This document shows positions 60,401 to 64,000 of a DNA stretch of 64,000 nucleotides, in pieces. The stretch's first letter is position 1; each line of letters opens with the position of its first letter. Made by a program: the position numbers. The stretch is from Escherichia coli O157:H7 (lineage in GTDB: Bacteria; Pseudomonadota; Gammaproteobacteria; Enterobacterales; Enterobacteriaceae). The DNA is taken from the NCBI RefSeq assembly GCF_013167455.1, contig NZ_CP038328.1. One strand, written 5' to 3'.

Positions 60401-63400
60401 GGACCCGCGTATTAAGCAGCTGGCGCGCCGCAGTACGGTGACACCGGGCGGTGTCGCCTGTAAATATAACGACATCATTCCGGCGGACCATTGTCTGCAT
60501 GATGTGCAGGACATGAGCCGCCTTAACCATCCGAAAGCGGACCTGTCAAAGGGGCAGTACGGAACCGTGGGGCAGGGGCTGCATATCGCCAAAAAATTGC
60601 TGCCGTTTATACCGGCGAATGCGGGCATTCTGCTGGTTCCGTGCTGTCGTGGTGGTTCAGCGTTCACCACCGGAGCTGATGGCACATACAGTGACGCGAG
60701 TGGTGCTTCGGAGAATTCAACCCGCTGGGGTGTGGACAAGCCGCTGTATAAGGACCTTATCGGTCGAACAAAAGCAGCACTGAAGAAGAACCCGAAAAAT
60801 GTGCTGTTTGCCGTGGTGTGGATGCAGGGGGAATTTGATTTTGGCGGTACGCCGGCAAATCACGCAGCACAGTTTGGTGCGCTGGTTGATAAATTCCGTG
60901 CAGACCTGGCGGATATGGCAGGTCAGTGCGTCGGTGGCTCTGCTGACGGTGTTCCCTGGATATGCGGGGACACGACGTATTTCTGGAAGCAGAAGAACGA
61001 AGCCACCTACCAGACGGTGTACGGCAGCTACAAAAACAAAACGGAAAAAAATATCCATTTCGTACCGTTCATGACGGATGAGAACGGGGTGAATGTGCCG
61101 ACGAACAAACCGGAAGAAGACCCGGACATTCCGGGTATCGGATATTACGGTTCGAAATGGCGTGACAGCTCAGCCACCTGGACGTCACAGGACAGGGCGA
61201 GCCATTTCAGCGCCTGGGCACGCCGTGGGATTATTTCCGACCGTCTGGCAACGGCGATTTTGCGCCATGCGGGAAGAGTGGCGCTAAACGCGGGGGCATC
61301 ATCGACAGTATCAGAGGTGCGCCCGTCATCGCCTTCCGGTGCAGAAGCCACAGGCGTCACAACACTGCTCTCTTACCTTGCCAGCGAGTCAGAGGGAAGC
61401 CTGAAAGTACAGGGATGGTCAGCCAGTGGCGGCAGGGCAGAAGTGGTCAGCGATGCGGAGGGAACCGGAGGTAAGGCAGTGAAGCTGACCAAGGAGGCCG
61501 GTAAAAGCAGCTGGGTGCTGGAGTACGCCGCGGGCAACGGTGCGGCTCTGTTACAGAAAGGGGGGCAGATTCGCTGCCGCTTTAAGGTTTCGGGAGCGCT
61601 GGCTGCGAACCAGTATGTTATGGCGTTTTACTGGCCGGTATCTTCACTGCCACAGGGCGTTGCCCTGACCGGAGACGGGGGGAATAACCTGCTGGCAGCG
61701 TTCTACATCCAGACAGATGCAAAAGACCTGAATGTGATGTACCACAATGCGAAAGTGGCGACAAACAACCTGAAACTGGGAACCTTTGGCGCATTTGATA
61801 ACGAATGGCATACGCTGGCTTTCCGCTTTGCCGGGAATAACAGCCTTCAGGTGACGCCGGTTATTGATGGTCAGGATGGCACACCGTTCACGCTGACGCA
61901 GTCACCGGTCAGTGCATTTGCGGCGGATAAACTGCATGTGACAGACATTACCAGGAATGCGACTTACCCGGTGCTGATTGACAGCATTGCGGTGGAAGTG
62001 AACAGCACAGACACTGCGGCATGATAAAAAAACCGCCAGCGACAGGAATGGACGCTGGCGGTGGTAATACCTATGGAGAAAAAATAAAGGAACGATACTT
62101 TCGTGCTCTGGTTTTTTAAATGAAAACAGTTCTTATTGTCAACAATAACGGAAAGAAATTATGACATTTCTGAACCAGTTAATGCTGTACTTCTGTACGG
62201 TGGTCTGTGTGCTGTATCTCCTTTCGGGTGGATACCGGGCCATGCGTGACTTCTGGCGCAGACAGATTGACAAAAGGGCCGCTGAGAAAATCAGCGCCAG
62301 TCAGTCAGCCGGAAGCAAACCCGAAGAGCCGCTCATTTAGCGGCAACTTTCTTAATCACACCTTTCGACGAGAAAATCCCATGTCAGAAATTACATCCCT
62401 GGTCACTGCTGAAGCAGTGAAGGAAGTCCTGCGCTCTGAAGAAGTCCGGAGCGCACTGAAACAGAAACTTCGCCATAACCTGGAAGCGCGTCTTGATGCA
62501 GAGGTTGATGCCATTCTGGATGAGCTGCTTGGTGTACAGGCAGAGCCACCGACTGAAGCGGGAGATACCACCGCAGAGAGCGGTGAAGTTCAGCCTGAAT
62601 CACCGGTCGCCGATGCGACTGAACCTCAACCCGAATCGGTCATGATGCTGTAACGGGGAGTCAGGGCCATCAGTAAACAGCTGCTGGCCTTTTTCATGTT
62701 GTGAGCTTCCGGATAACGGGAGACGGGGTATGTACCAGATGGAAAAAATCACAACAGGTGTGTCATACACCACGTCAGCGGTGGGGACGGGATACTGGTT
62801 ACTGCAGCTGCTGGACAAAGTCTCTCCGTCCCAGTGGGTGGCAATAGGTGTGCTGGGAAGTCTGCTGTTTGGCCTGCTGACGTATCTGACAAATCTTTAT
62901 TTCAAGATTAAAGAAGATAAGCGTAAGGCTGCGAGAGGTGAATAATGTCGCCGTCATTACGCAAGGCTGTTGCAGCTGCTATTGGTGGTGGGGCTGTTGC
63001 CATAGCGTCTGTGCTCATCACTGGTCCAGGTGGTAACGATGGTCTGGAAGGTGTCAGCTACATACCATACAAAGATATCGTTGGCGTATGGACTGTATGT
63101 CACGGACACACCGGAAAAGACATCATGCCCGGTAAAACGTATACCGAAGCAGAATGCAAAGCCCTCCTGAATAAAGACCTTGCCACGGTCGCCAGACAAA
63201 TTAACCCGTACATCAACGTCGATATACCGGAAACAACGCGCGGCGCTCTTTACTCGTTCGTTTACAACGTGGGCGCTGGCAATTTCAGAACATCGACGCT
63301 TCTTCGCAAAATAAACCAGGGCGATATCAAAGGCGCATGTGATCAGCTACGGCGCTGGACATACGCTGGCGGTAAGCAATGGAAAGGGCTGATGACTCGC

Positions 63401-64000
63401 CGCGAGATTGAGCGTGAAGTCTGTTTGTGGGGGCAACAATGAGCAGGGTAACCGTTATTATCTCCGCTCTGGTTATCTGCATTATCGCCTGCCTGTCATG
63501 GGCTGTTAATCATTACCGTGATAACGCCATCGCCTACAAAGAGCAGCGCGATAAAGCCACATCCATCATCGCTGATATGCAGAAGCGGCAACGTGATGTA
63601 GCAGAACTTGACGCCAGATACACAAAGGAGCTTGCTGATGCTAATGCGACTATCGAAAGTCTCCGTGCTGATGTTTCTGCTGGGCGTAAGCGCCTGCAAG
63701 TCTCCGCCACCTGTGCAAAGTCAACGACCGGAGCCAGCAGCATGGGCGATGGAGAAAGCCCAGGACTTACAGCAGATGCTGAACTCAATTATTACCGTCT
63801 CCGAGGTGGAATCGACAAGATAACCGCGCAGGTTAACTACCTGCAGGAGTACATCAGGACGCAATGCCTGAAATAATTTTTTTTGCAAATCACAAAGTCC
63901 ATTTAATGAGCCTCGCGATGCGGGGCTTTTTGCAATAAATGCGTACCGCAACGCATGTTTTTTACACCGAACCTGCCCCTTTGGAATGGGCCTTTGAGGA

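Follow-up and report, generated by a model that had tools for sequence, protein, structure and literature searches.

We analyzed a window of 64,000 nucleotides from Escherichia coli O157:H7 (RefSeq assembly GCF_013167455.1, contig NZ_CP038328.1) and describe here the phage lysis cassette that occupies positions 62730-63876 of its plus strand. The cassette is 1147 bp long and comprises four intact open reading frames (ORFs) in the ORF listing, S, R, Rz and Rz1. Position 62730 is the first base of S and position 63876 the last base of the Rz stop codon, exactly the limits given in the initial annotation of this stretch, which had proposed a lysis cassette here. All four products score above their Pfam gathering cut-offs, the Pfam scores placing their family membership far beyond chance, and the PHROGs labels are concordant (holin, endolysin and, twice, Rz-like spanin). 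An NCBIfam search with six proteins gave nothing above the curated cut-offs, and its only sub-threshold matches were lysozyme-domain matches to BgtA and SpmX. We conclude with high confidence that these late genes form the lysis cassette of a lambdoid Shiga toxin 2c (Stx2c) prophage adjoining sbcB in the O157:H7 chromosome, and that the cassette would act through the lysis pathway of phage 21. The following features were identified in the cassette.

62730..62945, plus strand: S, a 71-aa class II holin from the pinholin family of phage-21 S (ORF, Pfam and PHROG holin)
62739, plus strand: second in-frame start of S, Met4, giving a 68-aa form
62748..62813, plus strand: transmembrane domain (TMD) 1 of S, aa 7-28, weakly hydrophobic; 50% Gly, Ala, Ser or Thr (G/A/S/T), mean Kyte-Doolittle hydropathy (KD) 0.75
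62835..62903, plus strand: TMD2 of S, aa 36-58; mean KD 1.59, KD19 maximum 1.83 at aa 36-54
62945..63442, plus strand: R, signal-anchor-release (SAR) endolysin and GH24 T4-type lysozyme, 165 aa (Pfam and PDB matches)
62966..63025, plus strand: SAR segment of R, aa 8-27; 13/20 residues G/A/S/T, KD19 maximum 2.09
63047..63094, plus strand: catalytic motif of R, E35-x8-D44-x5-T50 (regular-expression match)
63439..63876, plus strand: Rz, inner-membrane spanin (i-spanin), 145 aa from the ATG (Pfam and PHROG)
63448-63510, plus strand: N-terminal TMD of Rz, aa 4-24, mean KD 2.41
63625-63630, plus strand: Shine-Dalgarno sequence of Rz1, AAGGAG (from the sequence)
63638..63823, plus strand: Rz1, 61-aa precursor of the outer-membrane spanin (o-spanin) lipoprotein, contained in Rz in the +1 frame (Pfam)
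63695-63697, plus strand: lipobox Cys20 of Rz1, in LLGVSAC, with VSA/C at residues 17-20

The genes are tightly packed: the stop codon of S and the start codon of R overlap as TAATG, and those of R and Rz as ATGA, which suggests translational coupling. The ORF list begins Rz 12 nt earlier, at the GTG codon at 63427. The window ends 124 nt past Rz, before the morphogenesis genes.

This cassette is already known, down to its exact sequence. Positions 62100-64000 are 100% identical to the Stx2c phages 1717 (NC_011357) and 2851 (FM180578), to Stx2a_F349 (AP012530) and to two other Stx2c phages; 1717, 2851 and Stx2a_F349 carry the same four genes preceded by the same DUF1378 and DUF826 genes, without any difference in the compared region. 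At the matching positions, the AP012530 record annotates a holin, an endolysin, Rz and Rz1. Full-length matches of the 1147-bp cassette at 100% identity were also found in O157:H7 chromosomes. The best match is at least 99% in 358 E. coli records, some match is present in 5246 of 5426 complete genomes, and the number of matching places per E. coli genome has a median of 3 and reaches 17. In a survey of 279 Stx phages, a predicted SAR endolysin with an R21-like N-terminal domain and a pin-holin were found adjoining stx in 99%, Rz was among the most conserved genes, and the embedded Rz1 was missed by automatic annotation (Pinto et al. 2021). Since sequence-identical Stx2c phages are annotated, the endolysin is nearly identical to a dissected enzyme, the pairing has been surveyed and the spanins have been curated, the cassette holds no new biology.

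The endolysin R matches the phage lysozyme profile PF00959 with 155.8 bits (cut-off 22.3; E=8.4e-46). It differs from R21, the crystallised lysozyme of phage 21 (PDB 3HDE), at 8 positions over residues 1-165 (95.2% identity), and is 96.4% identical to RrrD of the E. coli K-12 prophage DLP12 (PDB 4ZPU, E=5.6e-108). The similarity to both proteins extends over the SAR helix and the triad of catalytic residues, and the spacing E-x8-D-x5-T in R is that of the canonical lysozyme triad. The initial annotation had seen in R a Gly/Ala-rich, signal-anchor-release N-terminus rather than that of a cytoplasmic lambda-type endolysin. This assignment is borne out by the hydropathy profile, which shows a Gly/Ala-rich transmembrane segment at aa 8-27, preceded by the basic residues R6 and K7, and by the near-identity to R21, from which R departs within residues 1-30 only by P2S, I18V and S29G. 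For comparison, the SAR segment of Mu gp22 has 10/20 G/A/S/T residues.

The same N-terminus can be read in another way, as an ordinary cleavable Sec signal peptide, with R secreted and held in check by other means, as is Lys44 of phage fOg44. The succession of an n-region (R6, K7) and an h-region is common to signal peptides, and the h-region of R is followed by a stretch of small residues, G27-P28-G29. However, the sole AxA of the R N-terminus (A19-I20-A21) lies inside the hydrophobic core, with Pro28 directly after the core. We rejected this reading, which we regard as very improbable, on the near-identity to R21, which is reported to be unprocessed and differs at just the three N-terminal positions given above, and on the solved 3HDE chain, which is full-length and covers residues 1-165.

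In P1 Lyz, the first SAR endolysin, an uncleaved N-terminal SAR helix is likewise placed on a T4-type lysozyme; the PDB entries 1XJT and 1XJU match R weakly in sequence. Activation of P1 Lyz proceeds through disulfide isomerisation with a Cys in its SAR domain, and such a regulatory Cys tells the P1 Lyz type apart from the R21 type, which is activated by refolding. Residues 1-51 of R contain no Cys, the first being C52. The SAR segment without Cys thus points to R21-type refolding rather than to disulfide isomerisation as in P1 Lyz. According to a review, signal peptidase does not remove the R21 signal, which holds the enzyme at the membrane in an inactive state until the proton-motive force is dissipated by the cognate holin. 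Because R is 95.2% identical to R21, its signal would probably remain uncleaved, leaving the enzyme tethered until its release on depolarisation; the objection that the signal might be cleaved is therefore answered to the extent that homology allows. Release by the S21-68 pinholin has been described as the definitive assay for a SAR endolysin, and a construct of the 933W 'SAR endolysin' exists.

The product of S matches PF04971 (Bacteriophage P21 holin S) with 111.9 bits (cut-off 26; E=1.4e-32) over profile positions 1-63 of 64. Its two TMDs, the layout of which was read from hydropathy alone, are followed by a basic C-terminal tail. S is 94% identical to its 933W counterpart and 82% identical to EssD of DLP12; TMD2 is almost invariant among the three proteins, and EssD shares with S this conserved TMD2 and the C-terminal tail. 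By homology to S21 and its literature, TMD1 would be a SAR-like helix that leaves the membrane, and TMD2 would be the helix that lines the pinhole. The S21-68 protein is known to form heptameric pinholes of nanometre scale that depolarise the membrane and do not pass a cytoplasmic endolysin, and the channels of S21 (~2 nm) are too small for lambda R. Formation of pinholes of this kind by S is likely by analogy.

Phages with exported endolysins can encode canonical holins, as P1 and fOg44 do, and on that precedent S might be a canonical large-hole holin and the transmembrane segment of R incidental. Three observations speak against it: (i) the match of S to the P21 holin S family, (ii) the two TMDs, of which TMD1 is rich in Gly, Ser and Thr like that of S21, and (iii) the published assignment, through comparison with TCDB, of S proteins from Stx phages to the P21 holin S family as pinholins. 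On these grounds we rejected the large-hole reading, to which we give hardly any credence. A pinholin assignment for S also agrees with the initial annotation, which had paired the endolysin with a small holin and a spanin pair; S falls into the phage-21 pinholin family, and Rz and Rz1 are intact.

The two potential starts of S are of interest for lysis timing. The long form begins with MYQMEK (Met1 and Met4; 62730-62741), as in 933W, whereas EssD of DLP12 begins with MKSMDK. Thus, the three-residue extension is Met-Tyr-Gln, without a basic residue, compared with Met-Lys-Ser in EssD. The antiholin behaviour of S21-71 has been attributed to an extra N-terminal positive charge. Because the MYQMEK extension adds no such charge, the pinholins of Stx phages may have no dual-start antiholin, in which case the timing of lysis and Stx release might be set by another factor, a candidate being the conserved DUF1378 protein with its single transmembrane segment; we consider this proposal quite improbable as it stands. 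A 6-bp hairpin predicted by RNA folding at 62706-62722 sequesters the GGGAG Shine-Dalgarno sequence of Met1, and it is kept in 933W, where changes are confined to the loop. Its energy was indistinguishable from that of shuffled sequences (z = -1.6, -1.1 and -0.5), and no covariation was found in it among three sequences; on both grounds, an sdi-like element at the start of S is not claimed.

Rz matches PF03245 with 119.9 bits (cut-off 25.4; E=1e-34) and PHROG 13, Rz-like spanin (E=2e-71), and has two periplasmic cysteines, Cys92 and Cys143. Rz1 matches PF06085, the Rz1 lipoprotein precursor family, with 72.5 bits (cut-off 27.9; E=2.2e-20). The initial annotation had proposed an Rz1 in the +1 frame inside Rz, carrying the lipobox LLGVSAC, and this is what was found: Rz1 lies wholly inside Rz, its start at 63638 (mod 3 = 2, versus 1 for Rz) placing it in the +1 frame, and the lipobox is present. 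The Rz1 start codon lies 199 nt downstream of the Rz start, and 53 nt separate the end of Rz1 from the Rz stop; relative to the length of Rz, Rz1 runs from 0.45 L to 0.88 L, as in about 70% of embedded spanins. The mature protein would have 42 residues, among them 5 Pro, a Lys at +2, and a sole Cys, which is the lipid-modified one. According to the lipoprotein sorting rule, a Lys rather than an Asp at +2 fits the outer membrane.

The Rz and Rz1 proteins are identical to the phage 2851 entries of a published spanin census (Rz = EP2851_46). The supplementary tables of that census (Kongari et al. 2018) describe the phage 2851 pair as embedded, with an o-spanin start at +199 nt in frame +1, and file the i-spanin under the 'Lambda' family and the o-spanin under the 'HK97' family. 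The o-spanin is recorded there as having '8.33% proline' and a good Shine-Dalgarno sequence and as recognised by LipoP; two periplasmic Cys are listed for the i-spanin and none for the o-spanin, and two coiled-coil regions are predicted in the i-spanin, which is identical to Rz (Kongari et al. 2018). The same spanin allele was also found in Salmonella phage Emek.

The term 'proline-rich', which had been applied to Rz1 together with its lipobox, is overstated, since 5 of its 42 mature residues are Pro, compared with 10 of 40 in lambda Rz1. The central penta-proline is lacking as well: Rz1 has RPEPAAW where RzoD of DLP12 has PPRPPAW and the 933W protein has PPAPPAW. A Lambda-family Rz1 was rejected on the absence of the penta-proline and on the census entry, which files the identical protein under HK97. 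We therefore class Rz1 with the HK97 subfamily among the embedded o-spanins of the Rz1 type (PF06085). Lambda Rz1 further has Cys29, whereas Rz1 of the window is without a second Cys. In lambda, either Rz C152 or Rz1 C29 alone is sufficient for function. Because Rz1 lacks this second Cys, spanin function would plausibly depend on the cysteines of Rz.

Annotations of Rz1 vary among records. The census uses the first ATG (63638) as its start, and AP012530 annotates the second (63644). For O157:H7 strain 4276, which has the identical cassette, the RefSeq annotation made with PGAP lacks an Rz1 coding sequence (window 63638-63823; L004 26439-26876), and the other products are named 'class II holin family protein', 'lysozyme RrrD' and 'lysis protein'. 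Confirmation of the cassette therefore adds annotation certainty, the Rz1 gene omitted by the RefSeq pipeline being an example. The census curators also noted a further stop 15 codons past the ochre stop of Rz1 with a Cys codon between them; the corresponding frame in the window (63821-63871) contains TGC, and read-through into it is purely hypothetical.

Lambda has the same S-R-Rz order as the cassette, from S105/S107 to the pair Rz/Rz1, with Rz1 embedded in the +1 frame, but its S is a three-TMD large-hole holin and its R is cytoplasmic and has no TMD, both unlike the products in the window. The phage 21 type, represented in E. coli K-12 by essD-rrrD-rzpD-rzoD of DLP12, has the same gene order and the same overlaps as the window. 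The identity to DLP12 is high for R, intermediate for S (values above) and falls to 54.5% for Rz and 33.3% for Rz1, whose DLP12 alleles are lambda-like. In 933W, S is placed downstream of stx2AB, nanS-p and DUF1378, as in the window, but the lysis region reads S, R, ant, Rz/Rz1, bor, so that ant splits R from Rz, unlike in the window. Apart from the highly similar S, its proteins are distant (33% identity for R, 46% for Rz and 49% for Rz1), and its R, of 177 aa, belongs to another lysozyme lineage. Because the identities to 933W and DLP12 differ gene by gene, the cassette is best described from sequence as a mosaic of a Stx-type S, an R of the phage-21/DLP12 type and a third Rz/Rz1 allele, an outcome of ordinary lambdoid module shuffling.

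From the gene order and the homologies above, the following course of lysis can be proposed. Induction of the prophage would start Q-dependent late transcription, which would pass through the tRNA genes, stx2AB, nanS-p and the two small DUF genes into S-R-Rz/Rz1; this succession of genes was itself observed in the window. S would build up in the inner membrane, and TMD1, being weakly hydrophobic, would leave the bilayer. R would be exported by Sec without cleavage and be held at the membrane in an inactive state by its Gly/Ala-rich SAR helix. At a critical concentration of S, TMD2 would form heptameric pinholes of roughly 2 nm, and the proton-motive force would collapse. Depolarisation would then free the SAR helix of R, which would refold into the enzyme and render the E35/D44/T50 muramidase active. 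Once the murein is degraded, complexes of Rz in the inner membrane and the lipoprotein Rz1 in the outer membrane would fuse both membranes, and the cell would burst, releasing virions and Shiga toxin. Membrane topology, retention of the signal, size of the pinholes, lysis timing and expression in this strain are the parts of this scheme that we infer by analogy.

Phage-mediated lysis is the main exit route of Stx2, and the lysis cassette thus bears on disease caused by enterohaemorrhagic E. coli. A bearing of lysis on toxin release had been suggested in the initial annotation; the linkage of stx and lysis genes is documented for Stx phages (Pinto et al. 2021).

Several points weigh against the assignment of this cassette to an active phage-21 pathway. 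The long form of S is without the additional basic residue to which antiholin behaviour is attributed, and S is just 82% identical to EssD of DLP12, the closest phage-21-type S compared. Rz1 has neither the penta-proline nor the second Cys of lambda. For this exact allele, operation of the pathway is projected by homology to phage 21. Moreover, only 124 nt of the window lie beyond Rz, too little to judge the inducibility of the prophage, and the related record AP012530 has a terminase disrupted by the insertion sequence IS629.

The last two points also enter into a further explanation, that the cassette is an intact yet silent relic, like essD-rrrD-rzpD in DLP12 of K-12, and has little part in lysis or toxin release. 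Very similar cassettes do reside in cryptic prophages, and the multiplicity of matching places in E. coli genomes (median 3, up to 17) fits such relics, as do the IS-disrupted terminase of the sister prophage and the end of the window before the morphogenesis genes. Against this, none of the four ORFs is disrupted and each is 100% identical to its counterpart in the deposited genomes of phages 1717 and 2851. A Q homologue, the tRNAs and stx2AB precede the cassette in the order expected of a late operon, and lysis genes can act without packaging genes. Thus, we consider a silent relic unlikely and retain the reading of a late lysis cassette of the phage-21 type.

The left 36.7 kb of the window belong to the O157:H7 chromosome and contain wcaM, the O157 O-antigen cluster (including wzy, wzx and rfbE), gnd, ugd, wzzB, the his operon and the genes from yeeZ to sbcB. 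Beside sbcB lies the prophage integrase, which is followed by recombination and immunity genes, the Q homologue, three tRNA genes, stx2AB, an IraM-like ORF, and the NanS-p, DUF1378 and DUF826 genes. The main features of this region are as follows.

35220-36644, minus strand: sbcB, adjoining the prophage integrase
36826-38004: prophage integrase, beside sbcB, marking the prophage end
from 57647: three tRNA genes with anticodons CAT, TCG and TCT, directly upstream of stx2A
57983-58942: stx2A
58954-59223: stx2B; the equivalent B subunit of strain 4276 is called Stx2c-type by RefSeq
59520-59843, minus strand: 107-aa ORF between stx2B and nanS-p, annotated in strain 4276 by RefSeq (L004 22519-22842) as 'anti-adapter protein IraM'
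60033-62024, plus strand: NanS-p-type SASA sialate O-acetylesterase with DUF1737, SASA and DUF6645 domains (Pfam)
62161-62340, plus strand: conserved DUF1378 protein, 59 aa, with an N-terminal transmembrane helix and a tail that is basic; second gene before S, at a distance of about 390 nt
62381-62653, plus strand: conserved DUF826 protein, 90 aa, acidic; between DUF1378 and S

The distance from sbcB to the holin gene is 1639 bp longer in the reference strain 4276 than in the window. Strain 4276 carries two copies of IS1203 between these genes, and the window lacks at least one of them, the copy inside gam. The tRNA with the CAT anticodon is called Met by ARAGORN and ileZ in phage records. For NanS-p, the ORF list gives a GTG start at 60033 (663 aa), whereas phage records give a protein of 645 aa starting at about 60087. 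DUF1378 was found in 307 phage records, nearly all of them Stx phages and mostly at 95% identity or more; its Pfam and PHROG matches assign no function.

Terminator-like hairpins were observed in the stx region at 57905-57922 and 59481-59500. Others, with T-rich tails on the plus strand, lie at the end of DUF1378 (62328-62344) and about 60 nt downstream of Rz (63939-63956). In total, positions 57000-64000 contain 17 terminator-like sites, compared with 6.8 ± 2.7 in shuffled sequences.

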